Of a stretch of DNA of 64,000 nt, positions 4,265 to 57,298 are shown piece after piece (position 1 is the first letter of the stretch; every line of letters starts with the position of its first letter). Source of the DNA: Eledone cirrhosa (Eukaryota); NCBI GenBank assembly GCA_964016885.1, contig OZ024742.1, forward strand, positions 181,474,001 through 181,538,000, in the 5' to 3' direction. The notes under the pieces are model-generated. The model ran no database searches. It was not told the DNA's origin and saw only the letters and a program-made list of their open reading frames with translations. Position numbers and translations under genes: made by a program.

Positions 4265-5221
4265 ACTAGACATGAAAAATGCGCAAGCTCAAAAGTGCCA
4301 CAGAATGTTATAATAAACCTTCAAAAGTGTGGGACTAGAGTTGTTGCTAAAAAATATTGTAATCATTATATATCGTACATTCTGTGGCATCCTTTATAAA
4401 AATAGCTTAAACCAACGAAGCCTTTATTTTTACGCTATTTCACTTAGTTAATTCTTAGAGTGTAACATATAAAAATATGATTTACAACTATAAAATAAAT
4501 TAATTAATATAATAACAGAGCTGCGGAGCTGAAATTTAGGAAATAATGGAGTATCGGATCCTGAGTTGGAGCCAGTCAATTTTTGGCCGACTCCGCAGCC
4601 CTGTATAATACATTTCATATTAAAGTTATTAATAAACCTATTTTACACTTCATGCAAATTACCACGAGATATTGATATTAGATATAAGATACAGCGCAAT
4701 ATCTACAGCTGTAAAAGTACGAAAGCGAAGTAATAATAAGTGGCTTAAGGTAATTCCAATATGAAAGTTTGTAGTGATAAAAATTTGATAATGCAATACG
4801 ATTGTTAATATTATAGTTCTATGAAAATGTAACAATAGATAACTAAATTATTTTACTATTAGTATATTTAAGAAATTATCATTATAGATTTGATCGTTCA
4901 TATAAGCATCATATTAAGTTTCAACACAATTATTTTGTTACTATGAGTATATGATAATAATATTACGTAATTATTTATAGCTGTTATTACATTAAACATA
5001 GATGTATTTATTTTTATATGTTGCACTCTAAGAATTAACTAAGTGAAATAGCGTAAAAATAAAGGCTTCGTTGGTTTAAGCTATTTTTATAAAGGATGCC
5101 ACAGAATGTACGATATATAATGATTACAATATTTTTTAGCAACAACTCTAGTCCCACACTTTTGAAGGTTTATTATAACATTCTGTGGCACTTTTGAGCT
5201 TGCGCATTTTTCATGTCTAGT
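4265..5221. mobile_element. Fold-back element with ~213 bp inverted arms (4265-4477 / 5009-5221)
   Basis: ACTAGACATGAAAAATGCG... / ...CGCATTTTTCATGTCTAGT; arms near-identical; terminus related to 36064. Confidence 0.8.
4516..4603. mobile_element. 88 bp hAT-like MITE
   Basis: Termini CAGAGCTGCGGAG / CTCCGCAGCCCTG; flanks TATAATAA / TATAATAC match 7 of 8 as a TSD, the hAT length. Confidence 0.7.
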
Positions 5222-5799
5222 TTAATATTTTTTTAAGGCAACGCTTGTAATAACTCTAGTTAAACAGGATATATATATTAATAATAAATTATCGTTGTAA
5301 TGTAATTAGATTATGTAATTGTTATTATAAATTATCTTATAAATATTAGTGTAAGATGTATAAAAATATTTTCAGACTTTTAATATAAACAACTACAAAA
5401 AACAATCAATATTAAATCAATATATTATACATAATAGAAAACATAAAATATACAATACAAAAACAAAATATTTACATACAATTGCAATTATCAGTGTATA
5501 TACATTTTCTTTATATTCCCTGAGCAAATTAATAAGATTTGTTTTTATTGTACATAATTTGATGACTTGTTGGAGTGTATTAAAAGATAGCAACAATTTG
5601 TGATTAAATTGTTATCTTAAGCAACTCACTTTTTAATAGTTGTTGGCTGAGCGAAATTGTAAAAGCCTATGAGTGAGCAAATATAAAAAAAAATACACAA
5701 ACAACATTTCCTTGTGTTATTACAACATTAGATAAAATAATTGAGCAATGTCGTTATATTTTGCTCTTATTGCACATTAATAGTGTTTCTATTTTTCGG

Positions 5800-20843: not shown

Positions 20844-21812
20844 TATATAAAGAATGAATAATAACAGGTAGACATCATAAAAAGGTAATTTATTCCGTGT
20901 GCTTACAAATGTTTCCACGGTGGTACTACAGCCTAGTTATGCTATGTGCAAATTTACAACTATTTGCAGAACTCAAATATCCAATGCTGTGACCACCTTA
21001 TCCTCAGAGCAGAATGGTTAAAATGTACAATGTAAATACCCTTAAGTGGGGTTGTTGGAGAAGATAGAGTAGAAAAGGAAGAGAGAAAAGTAGGGGAGAG
21101 GGAGAGAGAGAGAAAGATATTGGAGAAATAGGAGAGAGTGGTTTGTAGATATCTTAATCAAAATGTTATGGTAGGGGTTTTATTATACTGGTTACTTTTG
21201 GAGAGATGCGTTGATAGTTAAGGTCGGAATTATTTATTGCTCCAGAAGGCAGATTCATAGATGTGGAGAGGGAGGGAGGTAGGCCAAAGGCGAGAGAGAG
21301 AGAGTGTAATGGATGTAGAGAGAGAGAGATAGAGAGGGGACAGACGAAGTTTATGTGGTGAGTGAACTTTGGGTTCGTAGTAGTAATCTGCGAATTGCAC
21401 TGAGTTACCATTTATAGTGATAAGCAGTGTATTGTCTTGTAGTGTGGGGGAAGAGAAGGTGGTTAGCTAGAAAGCGATGTTATAGTTACGGGTTCGAATG
21501 TTAAGTTATTTTATAGTGAGAGAATTTAGCTTTTAGTTTGTGGTTGCAGTATAATGATCGTTCAATTCTATCGTTAAGTAGTTTGTTTTGGGATTTTAAA
21601 ATGTAAAAAAGTTCAAGGTTACATAACCTACAGTACTTCAATCCATTCCGATATGCACTTGCGCTGGAAAGTATATCCCATTTTAAGGCGAAGTGTTGGT
21701 TGCGTTCACGGAGTTGCCAGGTCTTGTTGGCGAGCGTGGTCACATTTGTAAGCACACGGAATAAATTACCTTTTTATGATGTCTACCTGTTATTATTCAT
21801 TCTTTATATATA
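20844..21812 (-). mobile_element. PLE (Naiad-like) 3' end: endonuclease C-terminus, 3' UTR, hammerhead, inverted pLTR piece
   Basis: TTLANKTWQL..KWDIL..CRLCNLE..LLNDR.E..CNH (21501-21740); 21742-21812 is an inverted copy of 20844-20912. Confidence 0.8.
20900..21011 (-). ncRNA. Type I hammerhead with long stem II
   Basis: tgct-CTGAGGA-..ggtggt cacagc..gctgt agt accacc..-GAAA-catttg-TA-agca on minus. Confidence 0.75.
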
Positions 21813-21819
21813 TATATCA

Positions 21820-22315
21820 CATAAAACATGTCTATAGAATCACCAGATAAAATATATACCATTTCCTCTCCCAATTAGCATAATTAACTATATAAAAAAT
21901 CGAATAGACCAGGCTATAAGAAAAAGGCTTCTATGAAGAAATCTCCAACAAATAACCGAAACTAGTCCTTCGCGTCGGCTGCGACGGAATATTTATCGAA
22001 TATTTCGACAGCGTAATCGCCCAGATACAGTCAATTAAACAGAATTAGGTGTAAAATAAACTAGGAGAAAAGAGAATACATTTATTTACCTCTACCATGG
22101 TTTCGTCCGCAATTTGAGATTTCCAATAATTTCGGAAACTCGAGCATCGGACTCCAAATTTGTATCTCAACCTAATGGGTTATTTGTTGGAGATTTCTTC
22201 ATAGAAGCCTTATTCTTATAGCCTGGTCTATTCGATTTTTTATATAGTTAATTATGCTAATTGGGAGAGGAAATGGTATATATTTTATCTGGTGATTCTA
22301 TAGACATGTTTTATG
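21820..22315. repeat. Fold-back (arms 21820-21957 / 22178-22315) enclosing a 5'-truncated hammerhead (22087-22154, minus)
   Basis: Near-perfect inverted arms; minus strand gagtccg..cggac-GAAA-ccatgg-TA-gagg lacks CTGAT; family also at 11461-11545 and 42505-43025. Confidence 0.8.
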
Positions 22316-22384
22316 ATATATAGCTCTGATTATTTAATTTATTAACCTTTCATTGAGCCACAAAGTGACCCGTTTCAAAACACG

Positions 22385-23063: not shown

Positions 23064-23168
23064 ATATATATATATATATAATGAAAATTTGAACAGGGAC
23101 AGAACAGAGAGGCAGTACGATAAATGTTTATTAAATTCACGCTCAAGAGAGTGGGGGGTAGGTGGGGG

Positions 23169-23200
23169 ACGACGTTTCGGGCATAAGCCCTTCTTCAGGT
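23169..23200 (-). ncRNA. Minimal hammerhead in the 3' pLTR
   Basis: CTGAAGA-a gggc ttat gccc-GAAA-cg-TC; very short stem I. Confidence 0.8.
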
Positions 23201-24518
23201 GAGAGTTCAAAAGGTGTGTAGGGGAGTGGTGGAGAGACACATAGCGAAAGGAAACGGTGCAAATGAAAAATTAACAAATAAAGACAAAAATATAATAAAT
23301 AATAAATAAAAACAAAGCATGATCAAAATACAAGGAATGAGAAAATTTAAAAATAAAGGCATGATCAAAATAAACTGAAATTAAAAGGGGGGTAAACAGG
23401 TGGTGGTAGGGTGTGGGGTGAGTAGAGGTGGTGGCGGGTGGAGTGGGGAGAGGGAGACAGGGTGTCCGAGCGGGGAGGGCTGAAGATGGTGTGTGTGGTT
23501 AGGTGTGCGTGTGTGTGTGTGTGTGTGTATGTGAAAGTGAGGGTTGGGGGAAGAACGGGGTTGCATGTTCAGGAAGGTGTGTGTGGGGGGTGTTTTTGTG
23601 GGTCGGAGGGTCTGTGCGTGTGTGGATAGGGGGGTGGGGGGAGAGGAATCAGGGGGCTGAGGGTGTAAATATGTGGTGGGAAGCACGTGTGTGTGGTTTA
23701 AGCGTGTTGTGGGTGTGGGTGACGTGTGGATAAAAAAATTGTTTTGGGGTGTGTGTGTGTGAGTTATATAGGTGGTGGTGTGAGAGGGTGGTTGAAAAGT
23801 GGTAAGTTACACGGATGTATGGAGATTTTGGTGAGAAGTCAAAACGCGTGTGGGTAATCCAAGAAGCGGTGGTCGGAAGAGGAGAGATGTGGGGTGCGCG
23901 CGCAACAGGAAGTGGTCAGCAGTGGAAGTGCTGTGGTCAGTTGGTGCTGAGACAGTGGTCGGAAGGGCATAGCAGCAGTGGGCGGAATGGTAGGGAGGCG
24001 AGGATGGGTAGGTGTGAAAGTTGGAGTGAGGAGGGTGTGTGTGTGTGTGTGTATTAGTAGGGGTGTTAGTGGGATGAGTGAGTGTGGAGCGGGGAGAGAA
24101 GGGTGTGTGTGGTTCTATGGAGGGAGTGTGGTGTGTGTGTAGTTTGGTGAAGAGGTGTTAGTGGGTGTTAATATACGGGAGGTGGGGAGGGGTGGAATGC
24201 AGGTGTGAGTGGGGGTTAGTGGGGGTAGGGTATGTAGAGTTGGTGGTGTACGAGGGTGTGTGGGTACGTGTGCGTGGGGTTGGAAGGTGTTAGTGATGTT
24301 AGTTGCGTGGGGGTGGGTGGTGTAAGTGGGTGCGTGTGTGCGTGTGATAAGGAGGGGGAGGAGGAGAAGAGGGGAGGGAAGGGATGTTAGTATGTTAGTT
24401 GGGGAAGGGTGGTCAGATGAGGGGTGGAGTGGAGGTGTTAGTATTGTTAGTGTGGGGTGGACAGTGAAAAGGAGGGGTGTGTTAGTGGTGTTAGTGGGGG
24501 GAGGGGGGCGGTCGAACG

Positions 24519-27319
24519 CTAAAGGAATAAGGGTGGGGAGTTCAGGCCGGGAGGAGTGTGGGTCTGTAAGATGAAGATAGTACGTTGTTCGACCGTAAGG
24601 CGATGGGCGGGTGTTCCATGGCACTGGAGTAGGCCACAGACTGTGAGATGGCGTGCGGAATGTCCAGGGCTACCAAAGCGTCGGGCGATGGGGGAACTGC
24701 CCCCGAGACGAATGTCCCGGAGGTGCTCCGTGACTCGGTCCGCCAGGCGGCGTCCCGTCTGTCCGACATAAGTCGCGCTGCACCTCGTGCAACGAAGTCC
24801 GTAGACTAGGTTGGAGGAGGTGCAGCGGAAGGCATGCCGGACCGAGAGAGGGTGGCCGTTGGGACCCTGGAAGGTGGTGGTGTTGGTGATGTGGGGACAG
24901 GTGTTGCAGCGGGGCCTAGAACAGGGGAAGGAACCGGGGGGGAAACGGAGCGTGGGTTGGGGGGGTAGGGAGCTGTGGACGAGGAGGGTGCGGAGATTGC
25001 GTGCGCGTTTGAAGGAGGGGAGTGGTGGGGTTGGGAAGATGTGGGAGGTGGAGGGGTCGGACTGGAGGTGTCGGAAGAGGCGGCGGATGGTGCGGTGGAG
25101 GGGTAAGGTGGAGGGGTGGTAGGTGATGGGGAAGGGGAGACGGTGGGTGGGTGTGCGGTGGCGTGGGGTGAGGGTGGTGTAGCGGGGGATAGCACGGGCG
25201 CGGGTGAGAGCGGTGTGGACGAGAGAGGGGGGGTAACCTCTGCGGATGAAATGGCTGACTAGGGAAAGGGCCTGGGACTCGAAGTCAGCATCTCGGCTAC
25301 AGAGGCGGCGGATCCTGAGAAGTTGGGAGTAGGGAATGGAGAGTTTAGTGTGGGTGGGGTGGGAAGAGGTGAAGACGAGGTAAGAGTGGGAGTCGGTGGG
25401 TTTGAAGAAGGCAGAGGTGATGAGGGAGTGGTGGGAGGGGTCGAAGGCGACGGAGATGTCCAAGAAGTGGACGTGGGTGGTGGAGATAGAGGTGGTGAAG
25501 TGGAGGGAGGGGTGGAAGGAGCAGAAGAAGGAGAGAAAGGAGTCGAGCTGTACTCGGGTGAGGGTCGTGGCTCCGATACAGTCGTCAATGTAACGACCGT
25601 ACAGTTCGGGCGTGGGGCCGGTGTACTGGGCAAAGATTTGGGCCTCAACATGGCCAACAAAAAGGTTGGCATAGTTCGGGCCCATTCTTGTGCCCATGGC
25701 TACCCCCGTGACCTGTTGGTAAAACTCACCCGAGAAGGAGAAACAATTTAGGGTGAGGACCAGCTCGGCGAGGCGAAGGAGGGTGGGGGTGGAGGGAATG
25801 GGGGAGGGGCGAAGGTCGAGGTAGTGTTTGAGGGCGCGAAGGCCGTCAGCGTGGGGGATGACGGTATAGAGGGACTTGATGTCTAGGGTGAAGAGGAATG
25901 GCTGAGGGCCGGGTAGGTAGGTGAAGGAGTCGAAAAGGCGCAGGGCGTGGTTGGTGTCAGAGATGTGGGAGGGGAGGGTGGTGACAAGGGGGGCGAGGAG
26001 GGAGTCGAGAAAGGCGGAGATGAGTTCGGTGGGGCAGTTGCAAGCGGAGACGATGGGGCGGCCGGGGTTGTCGGGTTTGTGGAGTTTGGGGAGGAAGTAG
26101 ATGGTGGGGGTGCGGGGGGTGCGGACGATGAGGTGGGAAGCGGTGGGGGGGAGGAGGGAGGAGGCGATAAGGTATTTGATGGTGGAGGAGACTTGTTGTT
26201 GGTAGAGGGGGGTGGGATCGGAGGGTAGAGGGCGGTAAAAGAGGGGGTTACAGAGCTGCCTGAGGGCTTCGGCCGTGTAGAGGTCCGCGCGCCATACCAC
26301 CACGGCGCCTCCCTTGTCCGCCGGTTTGATGACGATGTCATCTCGGCTACGGAGGGAGCGGAGAGCGAGGAGTTCGCCCCGTGAGATGTTGTGCCGTTTG
26401 GAACGGTGGCGGAAGTCGAAACGATTTACTGCGCTACGGCTGGCATCGACGAAGGCGTCCAGGGTGCTAAATTGCCCTGGGGCCGGCGTCCAAGAAGATG
26501 GTCGTCGGCCCAGGGCGAGAAACGGGTCTGGGGCGTCCGGAGCCGGTGGCGTTCGGCTGAAATGTGCCTGTAGCTTAGTGCGTCGCACGAATCGCTCGAC
26601 TTCCGTTCGGGTGCGGAAATCGTCGCTGAGCGGAGTGTGGGGTATGAAGCGAAGGCCTCTACTAAGGAGTGAGCGCTCAGGTGCGGAGAGGGGGAGGTCA
26701 GGGGTTATGGTGACAACAAGGGGTGGGGTTTGGGTGTTTGGGGAGGGAAGGGAGGGTGTGGTGAGGGGTGGAGATTGGGTTGGGTGGGGGTCGGGGGAGA
26801 GGTGGGGAGTGGTGGGCGTATGGGGATGGGCGGGTGGTGGTGGATGGAGGGGGTTGGGAGGAGTGAGTGTAGCTTGCGGGCTTTGGTGGAGCTGAGGAAC
26901 GAGAAGAGGTGGTGGTTGAGGTTGTGGATGAAGGAGAGGATGGCTTGGGCGAGGAGGGGGTGGCAGGTGGAGTAAAGGCGGAGGAGGGTGGGGGTCAGTT
27001 GGTGGTCAAGTAGGCGGAGGGTGGAACGGGAGGCGCGGATGGAGTTGCGCATCAGAAGGCGTGAGGATCGGGTTAGGATACGTTGCGCGGAGGGGGAAGC
27101 AGCGGGGGAGGGGTGGAAGTGTAGCCGGAAGCCAAGGGGGATAAGGTGGAGGCGGAGGCAGTGGCTGAGGAAATGGATGTGGCTGGAGTGCCGGGTTTTG
27201 GCGAAGAGAAGGTAGGAGAGATGAAGGGCGGAGGGGAGATAGCAGGGTGGAAGGAGGGGGGTGAGGAAAAGTTTGAAGCGATTGTGGAGTTGGTGGAGAA
27301 AGGATCTCAGGCTGGCCAT
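24519..27319 (-). CDS. PLE reverse transcriptase + Zn linker + GIY-YIG endonuclease (one frameshift in the Pro-rich linker ~26720-26850)
   Basis: LSAPERSLLSRGLRFIP, IKPADKGG, YFLPKLHK, LDIKSLYT, GVAMGT, YGRYIDD, FKPTDSH, CSRPRCNTC, NLVYGLRCTRC..YVGQTGR; N-terminal part in ORF 26705-27466 from MASLRS. Confidence 0.92.
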
Positions 27320-27880
27320 GATGGCGTTGGGTGAAAGCAGGGGGAGGGATGAGAGGGCGGGGGTGTGTAGAGGGGTGGAGTGAACGAAGGGGTGAGTGCG
27401 AAGGATAGGTAGAGACGGGGAAGGGAAAAAGAAACAGAAAAACGTAGGGAGGGGGTGAGTAAACACCGGAAAATTAAAGACAAAAAATCATAAAGGTAAT
27501 AACACAGGCGATCGTGAACAAAAAATCATAGAAATATCATAAAGGTAATAACACAGGCGATCGTGAACAAAAAATCATAGAAATACAATTGTAAGAACAC
27601 AGGCAAAGAATCATATACGGAAAAAAAGGGGTACGGTAACAAAATCAAACAGAGGTAATGCGTGGAAGGAAAGACAAAGTGTGGGAAGGTGTGTAAAGTT
27701 CGGAGAAAGGTCACGGCGGATTAGATCGGGGTTGAGCCGGTTGTTAAGTTAAGTTCCAAGGATGGAGGCCGTGTGAGCGTGTGTTGTGTATAATGAAAAA
27801 TTGAACAGGGACAAAGCAGAGAGGCAGTACGATAAATGTTTATTAAATTCACGCTCAGGAGAGTGGGGGGTAGGTGGGGG

Positions 27881-27912
27881 ACGACGTTTCGGGCATAAGC
27901 CCTTCTTCAGGT
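27881..27912 (-). ncRNA. Minimal hammerhead in the 5' pLTR
   Basis: Identical motif to 23169-23200. Confidence 0.8.
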
Positions 27913-28671
27913 GAGAGTTCAAAAGGTGTGTAGGGGAGTGGTGGAGAGACACATAGCGAAAGGAAACGGTGCGAATGAAAAATTAACAAATAAAGACAAA
28001 AATATAATAAATAATAAATAAAAACAAAGCATGATCAAAATACAAGGAATGAGAAAATTTAAAAATAAAGGCATGATCAAAATAAACTGAAATTAAAAGG
28101 GGGGTAAACAGGTGGTGGAAGGGTGTGGGGTGAGTAGAGGTGGTGGCGGGTGGAGTGGGGAGAGGGAGACGGGGTGTCCGAGCGGGGAGGGCTGAAGGTG
28201 GTGTGTGTGGTTAGGTGTGCGTGTGTGTGTGTGTGTGTGTATGTGAAAGTGAGGGTTGGGGGAAGAACGGGGTTGCATGTTCAGGAAGGTGTGTGTGGGG
28301 GGTATTTTTGTGGGTCGGAGGGTCTGTGTGTGTGTGGATAGGGGGGTGGGGGAGAGGAATCAGGGGGATGAGGGTGTAAATATGTGGTGGGAAGCACGTG
28401 TGTGTGGTTTAAGCGTGTTGTGGGTGTGGGTGGCGTGTGGATAAAAAAATTGTTTTGGGGTGTGTGTGTGTGAGTTATATAGGTGATGGTGTGAGAGGGT
28501 GGTTGAAAAGTGGTAAGTTACACGGATGTATGGAGATTTTGGTGAGAAGTCAAAACGCGTGTGGGTAATCCAAGAAGCGGTGGTCGGAAGAGGAGCGATA
28601 TATATATATATATATATTTACATATATATACCTATACATATATATATATATATATTTACATATATATACCT

Positions 28672-29529: not shown

Positions 29530-32480
29530 CACATATATATATATATACACACACACACCCACACATACATACACACACACACATATATATACATTCACAC
29601 ATACAAACATACACACACACACACATATATATACACATACACACACATATATATACACACACATATATATATATATATACACATACGCATACATCCAGAT
29701 ACACACATACATACACACACACACACACGCACGCACACACAATACATACATCCACATGCACACACATACACACACACACACACATACACATACATACACC
29801 CACACACAGAGAAATGGCCTCCAAATATATATATATATACATACATACACATATTTTTTCCATAATATAAGAAGTTGGGACAGTGAAATTAAAATACAAC
29901 TCATTCTGATCACATTGAGTTCTTCATGTAGATTGGGCCCCGCAACCGACAGTGGTGAATTCTGTGTGCGAGATTGGGCCCCGCAACCGACAGTGGTGAA
30001 TTCTGTGTGCGCATATATATATAGATATATGTGTGTGCACGTGCAGGGTTTAACATGGATGTGTTGGTCACACAAAGGCATGGTCTGTCAACGAATAAAC
30101 CTGATTCTACAGAATTGGTCTCTGGTCTTTAATAGTAGTGATTCCGTGCGTATGTGTGTTTATATTTTATGACAATTCTATTGGGGTGATAACCCGTTTA
30201 GTTTTAGTTTAAATTTGTTAAGGAATAGATTTTCTTTGTTTATTCTTTGTTGCTGTGTGAACGAATCTGAGCACTTGTAGAAGGGGAAGATTTTAAAGTT
30301 GGGTAGTGTCATTCCTGCGCAGTTCGCAATATGGCTGCTCAAGGGGATTTTTCTTGTGTTAGCGTCCCGGATTTGTTGGCGGTGGATGGTCATTCTTTTG
30401 CGTAATGAGGTGCCCGTCTGTCCTATGTAGTTGTGTTTGCACCCACCGCAAGTTATTGCGTAAATCAAGTTCTCCGAGTTGCAGGTGAAATTGTTTTTTA
30501 CTGTAAATGTTTGGCCATCTTTGAATGGAAATGTTTGTCCTTCAGTGAGGCAGAGGCACGTTCCACAGTTTGTTCTACCACATTTGGTAACTGTAGGGTT
30601 GAGGATTGGTTTGGGTATATTTGGTCCAGTGAGAATGCGTTTAAGTGATTTGGGTTGTCTTTTACTTTTAAGGATCTTGTGTGTTTCAAGAATAGACTTC
30701 ATTTTTACATCTTTAAGTAGGATGGGGAGGTTTTTGTGTAGGTGATCAAACATTTCGGTATTTCTGGGGTTGAAAGTGGATACATATGGCAGGGTGTTGA
30801 GTGTGGTTTTCTATTTTGGATTGTTAAGTTGATGGGGATTTAGGTGTTTTGCCCTGTCTATTCCATTGTTGATTATTTCAAGTGGAAAGGCTCTTAAGAT
30901 AAGGGTGTCTTTTAGTTCCTTTAGTCTTTGCTCCCGTTTAGGTGGATCTGATACTATGGTACATATACGTTTGGCCAAATTGTAAGGAATGTTAAGTTTT
31001 GTATGTTTTGGGTGACTTGATGTGAAAAAGAGGTATTGCTTGGAATCTGTGGGTTTATAGAATATATCTGTATCTAATTTCCCGTCTATTACAGAGATGA
31101 GAATATCCAAGAAGGCTAATTCCTTGGGATTGGATTCCATTGTGAATTGTATGTTATTATCTATGTTGTTTATCATGTTTTTAAACGTAGTAAGTGAGTT
31201 CATGTCTTCTTGCCATAGGATAAAGCAGTCGTCTAGATATCTTTTCCAATTGGCTTTAAGGTGTGTGTGGAAAGAGTCTCCAAATAATAGAAGGGACTGA
31301 CTGTATATTTGTTGTTCATGGAATCCCATGACTAGGTTGGCATATGTGGGTGCTACTTTCGTGCCCATTTCCGTACCTGATACTTGTCTGTATGTTGAAC
31401 CATTGAATGTGAAGTAGTTATTTTGTAGGATAAAGCGGAGTCCGTCAGTGATAAAATCTGTGTTGATGCGTGTCGGTATTTCTGATGGGTGTGTGTTAAG
31501 CCAGTATTGGACTGCTGTTATTCCATAGTTGTGGGGTATGTTTGTGTAGAGGTTTATTACGTCAAAGGAGACAAGAATTGTATTTGCACTTACTGTTTTA
31601 GGGAGGTGTTTCAGCATGTTAAGGTCATCTCGTATGTAGCTCTGTATATGTTGTAGAAAGGGTTTCAGTAGGATGTCCAGAAAGTTGCTAAGTCTGTGGG
31701 TTTCACATGTAGGGCCTGCTATAATTGGCCTGAGTTTTAGGTCTTCTGGTGGTGTTAGTTCAATGTAATTGTTGGTTGAGGTGTCACATGCATCGTTTAT
31801 GGGTTTACATTTGTGGAGTTTCGGTAAGCCGTAAAAGGAGCTTGTATTTCATTTGAAGTGGCTTATATAGTTAAACTCTTTTGTGGTTAAGCTGTTGCGG
31901 TATTTATTCAGTAAGGTCAAAAGGTTCCCCATTGTTTTGGTGTGTTTGTAGTTTTCTGTTTTTTCATAGTATGTGTTGTTTTCTAAAATGTTAAGTGCGA
32001 GGGTCCTATAGTAGTCCGTATTCATAATGACAACAGTACTGCCTTTATCGGCTTCTTTGATAGTTATCTCAGGGTTGTTTCTAAGTGTGAATAATTCTTC
32101 CCATTCGTGTGTAGATAGGTTTGATTTCGTGTGTTTATTTGTAATTTTTTCATAGGGAAAGTTGGTGATGTGTTCGCAGTACGTGTCCAGTGCTTTATTT
32201 CTTCCCTTTTGTGGGCAGAAATTGCTTTTATTTCTAACCAGTGATTCGTCTTCAGTGTTGGTGTCGTTGTGGAAGAATTCCGTTAGTCGCAGCTTTCGGC
32301 AGTATTCCATGATGTCATCTTTCATTTCGGGGAAGTTTGGTTTACGTGGTGTAGGTGTAAATTTCAGGCCCTTACTTAAAATGTTGATTTGTGTGTTGGT
32401 TAGAGGTGTCTTTGAGAGGTTGATTATTTTTGGTTTCTCCTGAGGGGGCCCATCGAGTATCCTGGTATTTCAGGCTTTTC
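28757..32480 (-). mobile_element. Second Neptune-type PLE, AT-rich, with 3' UTR/pLTR and a decayed hammerhead (28901-28948)
   Basis: ORF pieces listed separately; ttgaaaa gatgg..ccatc GAAA ccgg TC on minus; 41-bp tandem duplication at 29930-30011. Confidence 0.85.
30178..32430 (-). pseudogene. PLE RT + GIY-YIG ORF with two in-frame stops (31849-31851 TGA, 30811-30813 TAG)
   Basis: INILSKGLKFTP, IKEADKGS, FYGLPKLHK, SFDVINLYT, WKRYLDD, YKPTDS, CGRTNCGTC, NLIYAITCGGC..YIGQTG; the three track ORFs share one frame. Confidence 0.92.
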
Positions 32481-32673
32481 CCTAAAAAAATATATATATA
32501 TTTACATAATATACCTATACATATATATATATATATTCATTAGCTAAGCAAAACAAGACCACAAATTTCACAAGGAAGACATTATTAAAAGATTGTCAAC
32601 ATGTTTTAGTTTGATGTAAGAAATGTAGAGAATAATAATAATAATAATAATAATATTAATAATAATAATGTCC

Positions 32674-34470: not shown

Positions 34471-35592
34471 GGAAAATTTGAACAGGAACAAAACAGAGAG
34501 GCAGTACAACGAATGTTTATTAATTTCACGCTCTTGAGAGTGGGGTGGTGGTGGGGAACGACGTTTCGGGCATAAGCCCTTCTTCAGGTGAAAAGTGTGT
34601 GGGAAGAGAGTTCAAAGGGTGTGTAGGGGAGTGGTGGAGAGACATATAGCAAAAAGGGGGTGGGAGGAAACGGTGCAAATGAAATTAAAAATAAAAGCAT
34701 GATCAAAATAAAATTAAAATGGGGTAAAACAGGTGGTGGAAGGGTGTGGGGCGTGTAAGGGTGGTGGCGGGTGGAGTGGGGAGAGGGAGACGGGGTGTCC
34801 GAGTGGGGAGGGTTGAAGGTGGTGTGTGTGTGTAGGTGTACGTGTGTGTGTGTGTGTGTATGTGAAAGCAAGGGTTGGGGGAAGAACCGGATTGCATGTT
34901 CAGGAAGAGGTGTGTGTGGGGTGGGGTGTAGGTCGGAGTGTGTGTGTGTGTGTGTGTGTGTGGATAGAGGAGTGGTGGCGAGAGGAATCCGGAGGCTGAA
35001 TGTGTAAATATGTGGTGGATCGCACGTGTGTGTGGTGTTTAAGCGTGTTGTGGGTGTAGGTGGCGTGTGGGAAAACAATTTTTTTTGGGGTGTGTGTGGG
35101 TGAGTCATAAAGGTGACTCCGTAAGAAGATGTGGTGGAATGGTTAGTAAAATCCTAGGATGGTAGTTGATTCTGCGGTCAAGGTCCACATACAAGTAATC
35201 CGTGAAGAGATTGGTCGGAAGAGGGGAGATGTGGGGTGCGCGTGCAACAGGAAGTGGTCAAGGCAGTAGGAGTGCTGTGTGTCTGTGTGTGCTGGGAGGT
35301 GGTCAGAGGGCATAGCAGCAGTAGGGTGGAATGGTAAAGGGGCGAGGATGGGTAGGTGTGAAAGTTGGAGTGAGGAGGGGGTGTGTGTGTATTAGTAGAG
35401 GTGTTAGTGGGATGAGTGAGTGTTTGAGAAAGGGTGTGGGTGGAGCGGGGAGAGAAGGGTGTGGGGGTCGATGGAGGGAGGGGGGAAGAAGGGAGGGATG
35501 TTAGTATGTTAGTTGGGGAAGAGTGGTCGGATGAGGGGTGGAGTGGAGGTGTTAGTATTGCTAGTTGTGGGGTGGGCGGTGAAAAGGAAAAT
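34467..35592 (-). mobile_element. Diverged 3' pLTR/UTR of the 23081-28595 PLE family, with hammerhead at 34558-34589
   Basis: Aligns by eye to 23081-24470 with indels; same hammerhead; same 3' end at (TA)n; 3' tip also at 43090-43150. Confidence 0.9.
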
Positions 35593-35729: not shown

Positions 35730-37315
35730 TATACCTATACACACACATATATACATATACATATATATGTATATATATATACATATATATATACATATAC
35801 ATATATATGTATATATATATACATATATATACCTATACATATATACCTATATATATATATTTCGTTTCTGAATTTGTTTAGCAAGATTCTTTATCTGAAA
35901 TCGTGTGTTGAAACCGATATTGTTATACTTTGGGAGGGTCATGTTGCCAATATATAACAATATATATATATACCTATACATATATATACCTATACCTATA
36001 TACATATATATATACCTATACATATATATATATATACATATATATATACCTATACATATATACACCAGATAGAAAAATGCGTACAGCAAAAAAAAGTAAT
36101 ATTGTTGGAATATAAACCTTTTAAAATACAGCACAAGAAACTAAAATAAAACTTTAAAAGAATATGACAAGAAACTAAGATAAAACTTTAAAAGAATAGG
36201 ATAAGAAACTAAGATAAAACTTTAAAGAATTGGACAAGAAATAAAAAATTTTACAATAATATTAGTGGCAAAATTTTTATTGGTAAAAAATCGAGTTCCA
36301 CATTAATAGGCTCTGGGTTCCACATTCAGAGGTCGTCGTCAGACCGGGGGATCATTTGATCCTGGTTTGAACACCAATTGGGCCATAACCATACCCCTAT
36401 TTCATCATTCGGCGACACGCCTCATGTGTCATGCATAATGTGAATGGACCCATGGGCCCATGAGCACAGATCTTGAGCAGCAGCGGACGGTCTTGTCGTC
36501 CCGCTCATCCTTGATCTTGACCAACCCGTCCATCTTCTCCTTGCATCTTGTCCTTGAGTTCAAGTCCGACAGTCCAGATGAATGCGTGCCACAGCTTTCT
36601 GGTACAGGAAGGGGGAGCAGGAGGACTGGAGGGATGACGTGACAGAGGGAGGGAGGACCGGTGGTTGAGGGAGGTGCCGTAGTCGGTGGTCAGAGTCGAC
36701 ATCTTGTCCCGGTCGTCTTCTCCATCTTCGTCTGGTGTTGCGGGACCAGAAGTGCATTCTTGGAGAGACCTGCAGCTGCATTGGCCAATTCTTCTTGCAA
36801 TGGTCATTCTGACGGAGCAGAACTGCTCAGCCAACCAACCCCAACCAGAACCAACCGCTCAGGGGCAACGCACAATGAGAGCAGGACAATTATTATGCAC
36901 TAATCAAGAAGATACAGGAAACGAATAACAAAATTTTGCCACTAATATTATTGTAAATTTTTTTATATCTTGTCCAATTCTTTAAAGTTTTATCTTAGTT
37001 TCTTGTCCTATTCTTTTAAAGTTTTAACTTAGTTTCTTGTCCTATTCTTTTAAAGTTTTATTTTAGTTTCTTGTCCTGTATTTTTAAAGGTTTATATTCC
37101 AACAATATTACTTTTTTTTGCTGTACGCATTTTTCTATCTGGTCTACTATTTTTTAAGGCAATGCAAGCAACAACTATCTAATAATTAAATGATCATAGT
37201 GAATTACTGACAAGTGATTGACATTTTAAAGTTCTTTTGAGTATAATTGCAATCTAGTTGAGGCAACTGGCTTAATGACAAAGCTAGTAAATCATGAATG
37301 CATTTGAGATGATTA

Positions 37316-37772
37316 GTGCATAATAGTGAATTGGTGAAACTTGTGCATTTCAATGGTGTTACAACAATAGATGTAAGTTATATAGTAGTAATACTTTATC
37401 ATTTTAACTTTTTAGAATGGACAAAAATCCATGCAAAGAAATGACTTTGACTGCAGTGATTCTCTCCAATTTACTTACAAAGCAAAACGTGGTCAAATAC
37501 CTTATCATCTCTGATAAAATGCCCAATCACTGAAAATCGGATGCATGGAATTCCTCATAAAATGCACCTATGAATCGGAAGCCATCACATATATCAATGG
37601 ATATAGGGAGTTGTTCACACTGGAAGACCATCACTTCATTTGTGACTTCATCAGTTATCTCCACGATTATCTCAGACACCCAATGCCATTGATGAGAGGT
37701 GATCCAATGTGTGAGCATGTAACTAATCTTAGAGAAGTTGTTATCGACCACCTGGCTTTTAGTGACATTTGA
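37316..37772 (+). pseudogene. Decayed spliced gene of unknown product
   Basis: GTAAGT..TTTTAG 43-nt intron at 37373-37415; downstream exon is in frame with ORF 37545-37772 but has TGA TAA near 37512. Confidence 0.4.
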
Positions 37773-37952
37773 CTGATTTGACTGATAATGATGTATTTTT
37801 AAAAAGTATGTGTACATTCTTGTTACTATTTTAAGGCAATGCAATCAACAACTATTTAATAAAATTTAAATTTAAAAATGACCATTGTGCATTACTAGTA
37901 TGATGACATTTTATTAAGTCACAAAATTAGTCAGTCAGCCATAAAACAAGGA

Positions 37953-38748
37953 TCAGGTGGCAAAAACATTGGCAAAAATTTGTGTCAATTTAAGATTTCC
38001 AACATTGTTCAAATGAATCATATCTGGTTTGAAGTCAGATTTGTCAAATTTTGACCAATTTTCAATGTTGTGAAGATTGGGCAAGTTCAATTTTTGAATC
38101 ATTTCTTTCATGCAGTAATTAAACTTTTCCAAACGAGAATTTCTCTTGGCCAAGTCATTTTTATTTTCAATTACACTTTGTGGACGTGGAATGACACCAC
38201 TGTAGAAAATGGGTGTACAGTGGTGCTTTTCCGCTATTTTCTGTAGCCTTGCAAAGAGACTCTTCCCCTGTTTTTCCGATTTTGGGCCTCGAATGGGCAC
38301 TTTGTCCTTAATTTACAAATAAATGATTAATAAAAAATACTTGGGCAAAAATTATTGTATTACTTTGCACAGCTTTGTAGTGCCAACGGTGCGACGAGGA
38401 TTCATATCATTAGAGCCGACATGAACCACCAATACTTTCACAAAAGGACAACAGATAACAATGTTGGCGATTAACATTACCTGGCCCTGACGGGCCCCAG
38501 GTATACAACATATCTAAGTATTTTTGTTGGTATGATAAGTAAATACATTTGAATTAATATTTTTATACCTTCTGGTCATTCGATTTCGCCACATTTCTAA
38601 TTATGGATTTGTAAAAACTGGCATGAATGTGAATTTGATCAGTCCAATTGCCCGATTTTAGTGAAAAGTTTTGATTCAAAATGGAAATACTCCATTTCCG
38701 TGCCATCGAAAAAATGAATAAGCCGATCAAAAAGCCGCGAAACATCAT
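37953..38748 (-). CDS. Spliced SGNH/GDSL hydrolase (esterase/lipase), 3 exons: 38748-38569, 38513-38364, 38306-37953 (~227 aa)
   Basis: GT-AG phase-0 introns of 55 and 57 nt join YKSIIRNV (block I Ser), CIPGA (block II), VVHVGSND (block III), YSGVIPR and DMIHLNNVG (block V) without stops; start codon uncertain. Confidence 0.85.
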
Positions 38749-38795
38749 TTTTAATTAAGCGAAATTAGTGGATGCAAATCTCAGAAAATATTGTA

Positions 38796-38881
38796 CACTA
38801 TTCGCACCTATCGCACTATTCGCACCTATCGGTACAAAAATATAGCGCACTATTCGCACCTATCGGTACAAAAAATCGCAC
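38796..38881. repeat. 3 x CACTATTCGCACCTATCG upstream of the esterase gene
   Basis: Exact 18-mers at 38796, 38814 and 38848; the last two are followed by GTACAAAAA. Confidence 0.9.
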
Positions 38882-39724
38882 GACTGTTAATAATACTAGA
38901 AGTGCAAACTATCTGTTGAATACCTGGTATATGAAGAGCAACCAATACGATCGGTCGGCGATCGGTCTTGAAGAAGAATGAAGAATGAAGTGAAATTTTG
39001 GTCTGGTTGTTGTCATCGGTGTTTCGCAGAGATGCCGGCACGAACAAAGGTGTCAGTGACACAAAGTTGTCCGCTTGAACAAAGGTGTCGGTCCGACAAA
39101 GGTGCAGTCAGACAGACAGTCAGACAGTGTCACAGTCGGTGCGACAAAGCGATCGATGCGATTTAAAAAAATTTAACTCACATGTTTACCTATATTGTCG
39201 CAAACTATTGATAGATTGGTACAAAAAATAGCTTTGATAATAAACATAAATTTTTAATGAAGTATTTAAAAAGCATTTTAGCAGTGAAAATTGAAGTAAT
39301 GTTTCACACTGACGGAAGTAGGGCCGTTCAGAAATGACGTAGTCAATTAATAGGAGGGGATTCGGCGATTTGACTACATTTGACTAACGTAATCACAATC
39401 ACAAGAGTTCCGCCGAAAAAATTCGTCGTTTCTGGATTACCTCCCCTAGCGTCACGCTTACTACTCACTCACTTGAACACAAGATTTATTAGCAAACTTT
39501 GATTATAAACTTTTTCCCGCTGGACCAAATTTCTAGATTTTTAAGCCAAAAGATGCGTAATGATGTATTGTTCATGCTCATATAAGTTTTATCTCAGTTA
39601 AATAAAGAAGAACCGCGCTGTACTGTCGTAAACAGACGATTGCCAACGAAAACACGATCACAACAATATTACTAAACGGACTACCGTCCGTTTAGGATAT
39701 ATACATACATATATATACCTATAC

Positions 39725-41505: not shown

Positions 41506-41858
41506 TATTAATAAGAGGAATTCCAACTTTGTCTGATTTACTCGTTTTATTTACAATCCTTTAATATTTATAATGGTATTATAATGAAATAGTATGATAG
41601 AATATTAAATTCTAAGTGTTAATTGAACACGTACTTTCATGCTTTCGCAATCTTCAGGTTCATAATATGTGGTGACAGTCCAGTTTGCAACCACATATTA
41701 TGAACCTGAAGATTGCGAAAGCATGAAAGTACTTGTTCAATTAACACTTAGAATTTAATATTCTATCATACTATTTCATTATAATACCATTATAAATATT
41801 AAAGGATTGTAAATAAAACGAGTAAATCAGACAAAGTTGGAATTCCTCTTATTAATAT
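41506..41858. repeat. Near-perfect fold-back (41506-41673 / 41690-41858) with a hammerhead in each arm
   Basis: + 41701-41739 tgaac-CTGAAGA-t tgc gaaa gca t-GAAA-gtac-TT-gttca; the minus copy at 41624-41662 has GT in place of TT. Confidence 0.88.
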
Positions 41859-41944
41859 AATCTTCTATACACATGCATACACACCCGTGTATATTAATCT
41901 ATCTATATATATATATAAATATATATACATATATATATACCTAT

Positions 41945-42127: not shown

Positions 42128-42166
<39 letters not shown>

Positions 42167-42657
42167 GTTAACATATACATAAAGTTATAGATATATATAT
42201 GTTGCAACTGGTCACTTTTAAGCTCTATGAAGAATTAATAAATTAAAAAATCAGAGCAATATATCATAAATGGCTAAGAATCGCTATGTGGCTGTGGTCA
42301 AGCCAGAAAGAATGTGTTTGGTTGCTTACGGCGGGTAGGCTTGCTGCTAGAAAGCGCAGCCAAATACCGCCAAATTTAATCTCAACCTATCGGGAGATTA
42401 TTAAATATAATGGTTAACATATACATAAAGTTATAGATATATATATGTTGCAACTGATCACTTTTAAGCTCTATGAAGAATTAATAAATAAAAAAATCAG
42501 AGCAATATATCATAAATCATGTCTTTAGAATCATCAGATAAAATATATACGATCACATTCTTTCTGGCTTGACCACAGCCACATAGCGATTCTTAGCCAT
42601 TTTTGAATCTATTTTTGGCGGAATCGGATTGAAAAACTAGATGTCTGATTTTGAGTT

Positions 42658-42736
42658 TGTCTCCTGATGAATCCTAACTCAGGACATTCCTATTATTTGG
42701 ATATCTAAAAATACGGATGAAACCATGGTAGAGATA
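42658..42736 (+). ncRNA. Type I hammerhead in rearranged non-coding unit 42164-43025
   Basis: tgtctc-CTGATGA-atcc..ggat-GAAA-ccatgg-TA-gagata. Confidence 0.85.
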
Positions 42737-43040
42737 TGATTGCGGTATGTACGCATTTCTTCTAAGTTTAATTTTACACCTAATTGTTTATGGTTGATGA
42801 TATATTTGGTCAGTTTCTACATGCTGTCGAAATGTTGGATAAATACTCGATTGGGGCCACCGCGAAGAGGCTACGTTCGGTTATTTGTCGGAGATTTCTC
42901 CATAAGAGCCTTTCTTCTTATAGCTTGATCTAATTGATTTTTTATATGGTTAATTATGCTAATTAGAAAAAAGAAATAGAATATATTTTATCTGATGATT
43001 CTAAAGACATGATTTATGATATATATATATATACATATAC

Positions 43041-48453: not shown

Positions 48454-48639
48454 TATATATATGTATATATATATGTATAGGTATATATATGTATATATAT
48501 ATATGTATAGGTATATATATGTATATATATATATGTATAGGTATATATATTTATATATATATATGTAAAGGTATATATATGTATTGTTATACTTGGGGAG
48601 GGTCATATTTGTGTAATATTGCCAGAATTAATAACAGAA

Positions 48640-50235
48640 CAGTGAGAATTATTGGTTATCGCGTTGAGCTCTGCTGCGGATCGAATTCAAACCGTGACAA
48701 TCTCCACTGAAAGTTTTCGGGAAATAGTCTTCAAGACTATACAGAGCATTTGAAGTCTTTCCAAATTGAAGGATATGTATTTTAAATTTTATTTTATCAT
48801 GAGTTAAAGCTCTATTGATTTTTCCCTGGATTTCACTAAATTCTGTGGATGAATCTATATTCTGATTCTCTTTGAGTTGAGTTTGAATTATTTTTCCCAC
48901 ATCTTACGTTAACTATTTTTCCCATTTTGACGCTATAGTCACTTATATATCATGGAATACTGTTGGCTTTTTGCTACAATATTTTCTATACCTTTCATTT
49001 ATATATATTTACATATATATATATATATATTTATATGTAAATATATATAAATGAAAGGTATAGAAAATATTGTAGCAAAAAGCCAACAGTATTCCATGAT
49101 ATATAAGTGACTATAGCGTCAAAATGGGAAAAATAGTTAACGTAAGATGTGGGAAAAATAGTTCAAACTCAACTCAAAGAGAATCAGGATATAGATTCAT
49201 CCACAGAATTTAGTGAAATCCAGGGAAAAATCAATAGAGCCTTAACTCATGATAAAATAAAATTTACAATACATATCCTTCAATTTGGAAAGACTTCAAA
49301 TGCTCTGTATAGTCTTGAAGACTATTTCCCGAAAACTTTCAGTGGAGATTGTCACGGTTTGAATTCGATCCGCAGCAGAGCTCAACTCGATAACCAATAA
49401 TTCTCACTGATTAATATGCCAAAAAGGGAATTTAAAAGCAGGCTAGTTCACCATCATGCGTGATTATGAAAAATAAAACGCACACGTGGAAAGACAGCGC
49501 TGGTGACGTCAGAATGGGACGAATGTTTGTTTACAAGAAACAACAGTAAAAAACATTCCGAAAAAACTCTACAATAAGGAGTTCAGCAAAAAGCAATATT
49601 ATCGCGGTTTTTTCTAATTAAAAAATACCGGGATTAGTCACAAATAATTTAAGCACTCTAGGAAAGAAGTTCGAGTATAAATATATAAATGAAAGGTATA
49701 GAAAGTATTGTAGCAAGAAGCCAACAGTATTCCATAATATATAAGTGACTATAGCGTCAAAATGGGAAAAATAGTTAACGTAAGATGTGGGAAAAATAAT
49801 ACAAACTCAACTCAAAGAGAATCAGGATATAGATTCAACCACAGAATTTAGTGAAATCCAGGGAAAAATCAATCGAGCCTTAACTCATGATAAAATAAAG
49901 TTTAAAATACTAATCCTTCAATTTTGAAAAACTTCAAATGCCCAGTATAGTCTTGAAGACTATTTCACGAAAACTTTCAGTGGAGATGTTCACGGCTGGA
50001 ATTCGATCCTCAGCAGAGCTCAACTCGATAACGAAAATTTCTCACTGATTAATATGCCAAAAAGGAAATTTAAAAGCAGGCTAGTTCACCATCATGCGTG
50101 ATTATGAAAAATAAAACGCACATGTGGAAATACAGGGCTGGTGACGTCAAAATGAGACGAATGTTTGTTTACAAGAAACAACAGTCAAAAACATTCCGAA
50201 AAGAAACTCTACAATAAGGAGTTCAGCAAAAAGCA
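48640..50235. repeat. Inverted partial copy + tandem dimer of a 638-bp non-coding unit
   Basis: 48640-49016 is the reverse complement of 49033-49409; 49038-49595 is repeated at 49678-50235. Confidence 0.9.
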
Positions 50236-52577: not shown

Positions 52578-53957
52578 CTCCCAGTGTAACTTATATTGGG
52601 TGTGGTTGTCTTTTAGACTCCAGATATAAGCTGAAAGTGACGTCATATTCCTTCTTAGAGGGTAACGAAAATAATGGGTATGCATGTAAAGACGCTGCTT
52701 GAATCTATTGGTGGTTAACCCTATGTAGACCCTACGGGACGTGGGTGTTACAACCTTACATTTGTAGACAATGTTACTAGAGAGGCATTTACCGGATAGG
52801 GGCAATCAACCCGATCCTACAATTACAGTTAGTACTAACTACAGGGTTGCACGTGTTCCTACGGCTAGGTAGTTTAGCTAAATTTGAAGCTGTGATGTTA
52901 TGTGCAAGGTTAGGAGTCGTAGAGTAAGAAATCTTAATAGTATTTCTATTAAAAATTTTACTATACAGGTTGAGGCCAATCTCTCGGTCGTTAATTACCT
53001 CGACGTTACCCTCAACCTATTGAATGGGTTGTATTACCCGTATAGAAAGCCTTGATAGAGAAAAGAAGGAAAAGGTCGATAAGATCAGTAACCTCCGCAA
53101 AATCACTGGCGCCCATACTCACGTCGAATGGGGTACTGTTGGATTTTTTAATCCAAATAGAGTCGTCGAAATTAATCACCGACTTACGGGCATTGAGGAT
53201 GACATCAACTTCGAAATCCTTAACCACTGTGAGTGTTTTAGCGAAATTGATAGCTCTAAGGAGAAGTGGTAAAGTGATGGAGGAGTAGTAATTGTTGATG
53301 TCGAATTGGATAAAACGGCAATGTTCCTTGTTACGTATGCCGTTGAACCAATCAATCACCGCGAAGGAATTGTTCCACAGTGCAAGAGGGGCCAAACTTC
53401 TAATTTCAGGTATAATTCTATCAAGAATCGTCTTACTAAGTCTAGCTAAATCGGACTTCGTAGGGTTAATAAGCCGAATAGAGGGGTTGTTCGGAAAATT
53501 GGATTTGTGATCCTTCAGGGTAAAGTGGGGAGAAATAGGGTCCAGAGGTTCGGTCCGGTCCAGGATGTTGAGATCAGATGTGATTTTAAACCCAGCATCG
53601 TTGATTTCATTGATGACGCACCGATTAGTTTTACGGTAACCCTTAGTTACAGCATTATGTAGTAGTTGATGGTAAGTACTGCGCTCCACTTGATATAGGT
53701 TGCCAGTTTTGTCGGAATGGACGTGCACGGCATTAGAATCCTTAATAGAACGAATTCTATTCTTCAGGTCTAGCTGGAAGGAATTGCTCCTATTCAGAAA
53801 TTCGATACTCCGAATGAGTTCCAAGACATCATTTTTGAAGGGTAGCAATGCTGGGTTACACGGGGGGTTATTATAGGTTTTAAATCCAAATTCATCCTGT
53901 TTGTTGTCTGCTTTTCACGGATTATCGGAGTAAAAGGCCCGCCAACGCAACCTTTTA
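52578..53957 (-). mobile_element. Naiad-like PLE with internal deletions and an inversion
   Basis: SDKTGNLY, FTLKDHKSNF..RLINPTKS, QFDINNYYSSI, VSMGA; GIY-YIG NIVYKCKV..YIGLT; plus-strand RT piece at 52963-53051. Confidence 0.85.
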
Positions 53958-56526: not shown

Positions 56527-56726
56527 NNNNNNNNNNNNNNNNNNNNNNNNNNNNNNNNNNNNNNNNNNNNNNNNNNNNNNNNNNNNNNNNNNNNNNNNNN
56601 NNNNNNNNNNNNNNNNNNNNNNNNNNNNNNNNNNNNNNNNNNNNNNNNNNNNNNNNNNNNNNNNNNNNNNNNNNNNNNNNNNNNNNNNNNNNNNNNNNNN
56701 NNNNNNNNNNNNNNNNNNNNNNNNNN
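56527..56726. other. Assembly gap (200 N)
   Basis: Run of N. Confidence 1.
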
Positions 56727-57298
56727 ATATTGTTATACTTTGGGAGGGTCATGTTGCCAATAAGAAACACACGCACCAGTGCTTTCACTTCAATTTAATT
56801 TATTAAATATTTATAAATTTACAAATTTATAAATTTCTGGTTGGTTGGTTGGTTCCACAACCAGATAGTTGTTTATATATATATAGTCATAGTTCTTTCG
56901 TCACACACTCTGTGACCTCTTCAGTGACTGGGGATTTCTTTCTTCGTTTCTGTGCCTTTCCTTTCTTCTATCCTACGCCAAAATGGCGAAGGATAGAAGA
57001 AAGGAAAGGCACAGAAACGAAGAAAGAAATCCCCAGTCACTGAAGAGGTCACAGAGTGTGTGACGAAAGAACTATGACTATATATATATAAACAACTATC
57101 TGGTTGTGGAACCAACCAACCAACCAACCAGAAATTTATAAATTTGTAATTTATAAATATTTAATAAATTAAATTGAAGTGAAAGCAACTGGTGCGTGTG
57201 TTTCTTATTGGCAACATGACCCTCCCAAAGTATAACAATATCGGTTTCAACACACGATTTCAGATAAAGAATCTTGCTAAACAAATTCAGAAACGAAA
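56727..57298. repeat. Fold-back (56727-56980 / 56984-57241) with hammerheads at 57035-57079 (+) and 56885-56929 (-)
   Basis: agtca-CTGAAGA-g gtcac..gtgac-GAAA-gaac-TA-tgact; family ends also at 35858-35950, 47111-47168, 48583-48640 and 52515-52580. Confidence 0.85.

Follow-up and report, generated by a model that had tools for sequence, protein, structure and literature searches.

How does a gene-carrying repeat that encodes no enzyme of its own move, and to what class of mobile DNA does it belong? The question is raised by a 3633-bp block embedded in a (TA)n array within a 64,000-nucleotide stretch of Eledone cirrhosa contig OZ024742.1 (positions 181,474,001 to 181,538,000; hereafter the window, from whose first letter all coordinates are counted). 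We find that the block is one repeated mobile element lacking a mobilising enzyme. The reading to which we lean, by a modest degree, is that of a non-autonomous Helitron-like element in which a long fold-back stands in place of the usual 3' hairpin, and it is likely to represent an undescribed Helitron variant rather than a new class.

Termini and extent of the element

On the minus strand, the element opens with A/TC at 39697 and finishes with CTGG/T at 36065 (slashes mark its edges), the target letters beside it being A (39698) and T (36064). An earlier note, made from the letters of the window alone, had placed a block at 36064..39696; the block is real, but its true ends are 36065 and 39697. 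With both ends present, the element is not the piece of a larger one that the note supposed. Once joined, its flanks give an unbroken TA/CA repeat, and in both this family (family A) and a second, diverged one in the window (family B) the joined flanks show insertion between A and T without target duplication, a test of low power inside (TA)n and one in which no true empty site was encountered. Both families begin TCCT and end in CTRR (CTGG in family A, CTAG in family B), in agreement with the 5'-TC and CTRR-3' termini of Helitron1. Across the window, CTRR/T at the edge of a TA array occurs in three places, two of which are the two families.

Words of the element were sought in public sequencing runs, and 11 of the 15 listed runs contained the stretch or part of it; five, under two organism labels, held at least half of the words, whilst the share in a third organism was 0.24. 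No run of RNA was among the holders listed, which has no bearing on expression. Four runs (X1, X4, X5 and X6) were compared in detail, leaving out five runs with shares <0.2 and raw RAD runs; the window DNA may itself come from X1, which is not an independent sample. A single X4 contig has a non-TA flank at the TC end, and it likewise reads A/TC.

The longest frame in the element has 119 codons, and no Rep/helicase (RepHel), reverse transcriptase (RT) or transposase is encoded in 36065..39697, bearing out the absence that had been remarked upon. Eight other frame pieces of the element had no Pfam match, and the end motifs matched nothing in metagenome or viral contigs.

The hairpin end and its 13-mer

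The 10-bp-stem hairpin seen abutting the (TA)n array was confirmed (39672-39695; z -4.99; 1 of 200 shuffles as good). The exact 13-mer beside it occurs three times in the window, always in the element: next to the hairpin and once in each arm, the arm copy lying 31-43 nt from the CTGG end. A shared word this long was present in four shuffles out of 5000 and in none of the 123 interior windows, and the pair agrees with the 8-15-bp asymmetric inverted repeat of Helitron2, whose 3' copy lies 20-60 nt from the end. Along the minus strand the order of hairpin, GTCT tract, tandem repeats, 13-mer and end is that of DINE-1/HINE elements. The tandem 18-mers were found as reported (38796-38831), with a third copy of 16 nt at 38850, as were the repeats at 39044-39150, which include five copies of ACAAAG (39044-39149), two further copies lying elsewhere in the element; the latter region may serve as the esterase promoter. 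A likeness of the 13-mer to the nonanucleotide of CRESS viruses was dropped, since the 13-mer is not at the hairpin tip and family B differs there.

Fold-back arms and the second family

The inverted arms around a GC-rich cargo described in the earlier note are present: 36064-36277 and 36930-37143 are 96.7% alike over 214 nt, and GC content per 200 nt is 0.46-0.57 in the loop compared with about 0.3 in the surroundings. The subrepeats within the arms recur every 34 bp, however, the 33 bp given before applying solely to the last step. Counting from the CTGG end, the inner arm is an inverted copy of the terminal 213 bp of the element (seven mismatches), placed 652 bp inside, and folding the terminal arm against it base-pairs 205 of the last 212 nt. 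Five frame pieces of the loop had no Pfam match, and the loop showed no similarity to the element interior or to the loop of family B except for one 16-mer (9 of 200 shuffles equal).

Family B was found through a blast match at 5203-5255 (79% over 53 nt, E 3.8e-4). Its member in the window is complete and minimal (1004 bp), running from A/TCCT at 5269 to CTAG/T at 4266, with arms that differ by one mismatch. Its loop is unrelated to that of family A, but the letters outside its inner arm are the same, the first 20 nt of the family A extension being common to both. Loose ends in X5 and X6 revealed two further arm-end variants that kept CTAG with adjacent letters changed, and CTRG is thus preserved at the arm end in four variants with differing neighbours. 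The family B loop also contains a short inverted-repeat insert (4515-4604), and within each of its arms lie two inverted copies of a 13-mer of its own, separated by 68 nt.

Copies and internal deletion derivatives

Contigs covered 30 of 30 bins of the element in X1 and in X4, 28 of 30 in X5 and 16 of 30 in X6, and the uncovered bins (2 in X5, 14 in X6) were not counted as absence. Single contigs cross from one module to the next: X6 record 24 at the joint of loop and inner arm, X4 record 11 at that of inner arm and extension, X4 record 13 between the plus-strand open reading frame (ORF) and the esterase, and X4 record 15 between the repeat region and the terminal module. These bear out the proposal that the modules travel together as one non-autonomous, gene-carrying unit, and their co-occurrence elsewhere was likewise found, the inner arm being joined to the hairpin end in three organisms.

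Among seven listed deletion joints, four end at a hot spot, 39423-39433, from left ends at 37286, 37551 and 38135, giving three internal deletion forms that all retain both ends, as do HINEs, which are described as deletion forms keeping both ends (PMC4067079). The 37286 form was found in all three organisms, and a 553-bp contig (X5 record 19) links the inner arm to the hairpin end. None of the seven joints removes the inner arm or the loop, and none is a one-sided truncation or partial tandem, contigs being apt to drop rare forms. Extension length in family A ranges from 143 to 2554 nt. A stem close to the hot spot was not significant (z -1.79; 13 of 200 shuffles).

The 37551 form was prominent in X4 and not among the forms listed for X1, although the two runs share an organism label. 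In X1, single contigs have depths, not to be equated with copy numbers, that rise from about 700 in the interior through 1450 to 2370 in the loop and 2700 in the terminal module; the depths of the three X1 forms (695, 724 and 710) sum to near the loop value, suggesting that most copies carry the loop. A summed end depth of ~30,000 is not taken to indicate a very abundant short family, because overlapping contigs are added together in it. At most of the 40 substitution sites listed, out of 75, every covering contig disagrees with the window, and either the window copy is decaying privately or these are assembly errors. The near-identical sequence under three organism labels may reflect close relatives, transfer or mixed samples. 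A contig variant of the terminal module that omits 84 nt (39543-39628) points to more subfamilies.

These data bear on two other explanations. One, very improbable in our view, takes the arm-loop-arm unit as a separate terminal inverted repeat (TIR) element of MULE or foldback type beside an unrelated esterase repeat, or has the whole moved by another enzyme (a tyrosine recombinase or an unknown one). Near-perfect 213-bp arms around cargo do resemble long TIRs, yet they lack a target duplication and the second arm is internal; the window holds further fold-back repeats, but here the two families and two other organisms have conserved the sequence that borders the inner arm on its outer side, the 553-bp contig links inner arm to hairpin end, and the 13-mer is common to the hairpin end and the arms. 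The separate-TIR form is largely refuted by these observations.

The other has an ordinary Helitron chimera, formed when one end inserted once, long ago, in opposite orientation into another, with the arms undergoing only passive gene conversion; we consider this improbable. Opposite-orientation self-insertion has been proposed for Fusarium Helitrons (PMC5148889), but the loop is not the inverted copy of the interior that self-insertion predicts, the one shared 16-mer aside. The inner arm does finish CTGG/T like an inserted 3' end, and direct repeats at 37145-37228 and 37824-37913 would suit a stepwise build-up, whilst both arms are kept in all listed deletion forms and in the 1-kb second family.

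Candidate passenger genes

On the minus strand, three predicted exons and two phase-0 GT..AG introns (55 and 57 nt) make up a putative SGNH esterase gene of retroelement-ORF1 type; removal of the introns would give a product of 213 codons with no internal stop. The spliced esterase of the earlier note therefore stands as to its introns and frame, its splicing being a prediction; contig X4 record 14 crosses both introns unspliced. Blocks II, III and V are clear and align with P0001, the one relative among 1.84 billion representatives (E 1.2e-7, 28%), whereas the block I serine was placed by spacing alone (15 residues to block II, compared with 14 in P0001). Catalytic activity is uncertain because block I lacks the usual G-D. 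Exon 3 matched Pfam Lipase_GDSL_3 at E 0.002, under the curated cut-off, and a word-based protein search returned nothing for the esterase or for longer forms of P0001. The sole PDB match of P0001 is an ORF1-encoded protein (4C1B, E 2.4e-7), which we take to be a fish long interspersed nuclear element (LINE) esterase. The gene was probably captured from a retroelement ORF1 and would ride along as a passenger, dispensable in cis; each of the six listed substitutions in its exons alters a residue. P0001 also has a faint NADAR C-terminal piece ahead of its SGNH domain (E 0.18; single record), and contigs reveal a diverged paralogue of exon 1 (38604-38657), again indicating more subfamilies.

The plus-strand ORF is a possible gene, given that no homologue of the residues tested was found in Pfam, Atlas (no usable match) or the word-based protein search and that 15 of 300 shuffles yielded an ORF as long. 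The decayed, spliced gene previously read here has its frame break, which is due to 4 nt missing after 37524 in the window copy only, the contigs of both runs covering the site being intact there; with X over the gap, the frame is open for 122 codons. The candidate intron precedes the ATG.

Table 1. Coordinates of the element, its parts and the second family in the window
Feature	Position	Strand	Remarks
Whole element	36065..39697	minus	5'-TC ... CTGG-3'
Terminal arm	36065..36277	minus	34-bp subrepeats; 13-mer 36095-36107; CTGG 36065-36068
Loop (cargo)	36278..36929	unstranded	GC-rich
Inner arm	36930..37142	plus	inverted copy of the 3'-terminal 213 bp; yields CTGG/TC on plus strand
Constant extension beyond inner arm	37143..37286	unstranded	retained in all listed deletion forms
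Possible gene, about 119 codons	37417..37772	plus	frame broken after 37524; candidate 43-nt intron 37373-37415
Diverged direct copy of 37145-37228	37824..37913	unstranded	75%; 0/200 shuffles equal
SGNH esterase exon 3 (predicted)	37953..38306	minus	D-x-x-H, then stop
SGNH esterase exon 2 (predicted)	38364..38513	minus	block II (P-G-A), block III (G-S-N-D)
SGNH esterase exon 1 (predicted)	38569..38706	minus	block I F-Y-K-S in place of G-D-S
Tandem 16-18-mers	38785..38875	unstranded	three copies
ACAAAG repeats and short degenerate (GTCT)n tract	39044..39150	minus	CpG-rich region upstream of esterase
Terminal module, about 275 bp	39424..39697	minus	present in the three large deletion forms; breakpoints cluster at 39423-39433
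13-mer adjoining hairpin	39661..39673	minus	pairs, inverted, with the 13-mer close to the opposite end; resembles an asymmetric terminal inverted repeat
5'-TC, then 10-bp-stem hairpin	39672..39697	minus	hairpin itself 39672-39695
Second, diverged family	4266..5269	minus	A/TCCT, 48-nt extension, 212-bp arms, 531-nt loop, CTAG/T

Comparison with known systems

The element shares with Helitron1 (HLE1), as described for Helraiser (PMC4778049), its 5'-TC, CTRR-3', A/T insertion, AT-rich target, cargo genes and non-autonomous derivatives. Unlike Helitron1, it has no significant 16-20-nt 3' hairpin and a strong 5' hairpin instead, together with a 13-mer inverted repeat between its ends and, inside, the last 213 bp of the 3' side copied in inverted orientation. 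With Helitron2/Helentron and HINE/DINE-1 elements, as these are described (PMC3627910, PMC4067079, PMC5148889, PMC7492417), it has in common a short asymmetric inverted repeat, a 5' hairpin, a 3' repeat copy about 30 nt from the end, a GTCY-type tract followed by tandem repeats, and deletion derivatives. Unlike these, it ends in CTRR, carries long arms and has its 5' repeat 24 nt in, overlapping the hairpin by 2 nt. Because it departs from the one in its 3' hairpin and from the other in its target and 5'-repeat position, we file it under neither Helitron1 nor Helitron2/Helentron.

A comparably mixed structure, with a CTAG end and an A/T target, is described for the Helentron-allied proto-Helentron of Phytophthora (PMC4067079); that element is defined by its RepHel and is likened here from ends and target, and no long arms are described for it. 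The texim-Helitron of fish likewise pairs a Helitron with an intron-bearing SGNH hydrolase, one related to CR1 ORF1 esterases (PMC4021074). The texim gene has up to 15 exons and adjoins Helitron coding sequence, and the likeness to our esterase is one of description.

Weighing the Helitron reading

Of the candidates put forward in the earlier note (Terminon-like Penelope cargo, Helitron-like element, virus), the Helitron-like one fits best, given TC and CTRR termini at A/T in two families. A viral origin is not supported, as no viral-type ORF is present and the motif is absent from viral contigs. A plus-strand HINE ending in the strong hairpin had also been considered, and was dropped once both families showed minus-strand TC/CTRR ends.

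Several observations nevertheless weigh against a Helitron. A/TC occurs at 13 array edges of the window taken as a control and is weak evidence alone, and an A/T flank is trivial within (TA)n. The Helitron1 hairpin (16-20 nt, 10-12 nt before the 3' end) is absent in both families: the nearest 3'-end stem in family A is 3 bp long, 13 nt from the end (36078-36088; z -0.46), and the score in family B (z +1.26) is no more significant. The target in both families is A/T, not the T/T (or T/C) of Helitron2/Helentron. The hairpin-side 13-mer starts 24 nt in from the 5' terminus, where 0-2 nt would be expected; in Helitron2 the 5' repeat lies 0-4 nt from the end and itself forms the 5' hairpin, and here it does not, though a hairpin exists. 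Similarity between the arms of the two families is weak alone (16 of 200 shuffles equal), and an ATIR-like 12-mer (asymmetric terminal inverted repeat) in family B is marginal (11 of 12; 18 of 300 shuffles). Motif searches of metagenome and viral contigs found no loci of a RepHel partner with matching ends. In the four runs no contig spans the whole block, and none crosses the junction of outer arm and loop with at least 31 letters on each side.

Further points come from the Penelope-like elements (PLEs). On that reading, the principal alternative and one that we regard as doubtful though well short of negligible, the element is a non-autonomous PLE: the inner arm would be a pseudo-long terminal repeat, with the outer arm as its inverted copy, and the extension would be a tail that has grown. 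Copying into (TA)n would start at the hairpin end and be the work of a Penelope RT/GIY-YIG protein. PLEs are described as combining an inverted repeat, a 30-40-bp tail at one end and a (TA)n bias (PMC8557442); the 48-nt extension of family B fits such a tail, whereas the extension in family A runs far beyond it. Naiads are reported to prefer (TA)n and to be without hammerheads, and PLEs to retain introns (PMC8557442), features that the element parallels in its (TA)n flanks, one-sided extension and introns, but TC and CTRG ends are left unaccounted for and the listed forms are internal deletions between fixed ends, not one-sided truncations. A hammerhead-bearing family in the window has the same arm-loop-arm-extension layout, yet its inverted matches are of 147, 53 and 44 nt, compared with arms of 213 and 212 bp in our two families. 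None of the 16 hammerhead core matches in the window falls inside family A or B, a result of a pattern search that found three PLE copies and that replaced an Rfam scan in which matches were repeat-driven and below gathering scores and a neighbouring Penelope-type control was missed. The PLE RT is described as beginning in an AC-rich stem-loop and cutting AT-rich DNA (PMC11167929), and Penelope-type ORFs are present in the window, but tblastx against the PLE copies there gave no similarity, and the element shows none to RT/GIY-YIG. Terminons bear GDSL esterases (PMC6431247), as the element does, and P0001 matches a retroelement ORF1 structure; a Terminon-like origin is not supported, however, as the element has neither a hammerhead core nor a telomeric repeat.

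A model for transposition

If the element is a Helitron, a RepHel encoded elsewhere would nick the TC end (39697) and unwind the minus strand, and the displaced strand would run through the esterase gene, extension, inner arm and loop before the terminal arm paired with the inner arm into a 213-bp stem, or panhandle. This stem would mark the CTGG end for cutting and for joining to the T of an AT target, the 13-mer acting like the Helitron2 ATIR. Recurrent fold-back would keep the arms alike within a family (97-99.5%) while families diverge, and such a role for the panhandle would account for the retention of the arms in every listed derivative and in the 1-kb family B. The hot spot, which lies 275 nt inside the 5' end, would give rise to internal deletions, and the resulting forms could spread since they retain the fold-back and the two ends.

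Parts of this scheme have parallels in published accounts. RepHel is described as nicking the 5'-TC, unwinding one strand and halting at the hairpin near CTRR, and removal of that hairpin as lowering Helitron transposition, with ends bypassed (PMC4778049); the Helitron2 ATIR has been proposed to define the endpoint (PMC3627910), and intron-bearing SGNH genes are reported as carried by fish Helitrons (PMC4021074), the sole case of such carriage met in the literature searched. Gene capture, deletion derivatives and an SGNH passenger have precedent (PMC4067079, PMC4021074, PMC11417382, PMC5148889, PMC7492417, PMC6431247, PMC13085455). The literature searched, which did not extend to Repbase or most subscription journals, described no Helitron whose 3' end recurs inside it as a long inverted copy; Repbase may already list such a family.

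A bolder and, we think, unlikely extension would make this an animal rolling-circle family that folds its displaced strand into a 200-bp panhandle, terminating on the fold-back and possibly priming its second strand from it, with a loop flipping from copy to copy and serving as a fixed cargo slot, and the esterase a second independent Helitron capture of a retroelement esterase. This extension starts from the inner arm, which puts CTGG/TC on the plus strand, letters as at a circle junction, and the use that parvoviruses make of their hairpins would be its analogue. If true, a CTRR/T nick-type site would lie on each strand through the duplicated end.

The surrounding window

About a third of the window is TA-type repeat by repeat mask, and between the arrays lie ORFs that we take, from their motifs, to be of LINE and Penelope type, a repeat landscape reminiscent of cephalopods. 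A third repeat family in the TA arrays (21817-22380, 42166-43019 and 11298-11537), with inverted arms of varying length, a one-sided extension and, in one copy, a hammerhead-like motif at 42664, is likely a non-autonomous Penelope derivative. A near-complete Penelope-type element (23085-28593) has an RT and GIY-YIG frame on the minus strand (24519-27487), and 798-bp direct repeats (98%) that include hammerhead cores (23198, 27910); 34473-35590 holds a truncated relative, and 30166-32508 and 53012-53914 hold stop-broken Penelope-type RT/GIY-YIG frames.

Other repeats include a near-perfect fold-back between TA arrays (41508-41860), with arms of about 170 bp, a short spacer and a hammerhead core pattern in each arm (41657, 41706), and a tandem-plus-inverted layout of the kind described for PLEs at 48593-50232, where an inverted 360-bp copy and a short TA tract precede a 552-bp direct repeat (94%). 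Hammerhead-like sequence stands on both strands at 56924-57040, as an inverted pair about 116 nt apart, and at 20851-21803, within TA arrays, an AG-rich stretch of 0.8 kb is bounded by inverted 69-bp ends (97%). Broken non-LTR retrotransposon RT frames (7949-10103 and 62001-63094) and a long LINE ORF1-like frame with Asn/Thr repeats and a CCHC zinc knuckle, entering an N gap (54865-56763), complete the set.

Implications

The element is selfish DNA under either the Helitron or the Penelope reading. If a Penelope enzyme moves it, the element would be a non-autonomous PLE of unusual size that carries a gene. As a Helitron, its Helitron1 ends mixed with Helitron2-type repeats are such that structure-based finders would overlook it or label its arms a MITE. 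Recognition of the Helitron 3' end and second-strand synthesis are partly known, mostly from one rebuilt bat element. A natural family of this kind, amplified recently, would offer a test case for both processes: the small terminator hairpin is missing from it, and all of its listed deletion forms retain the long inverted copy of the end.

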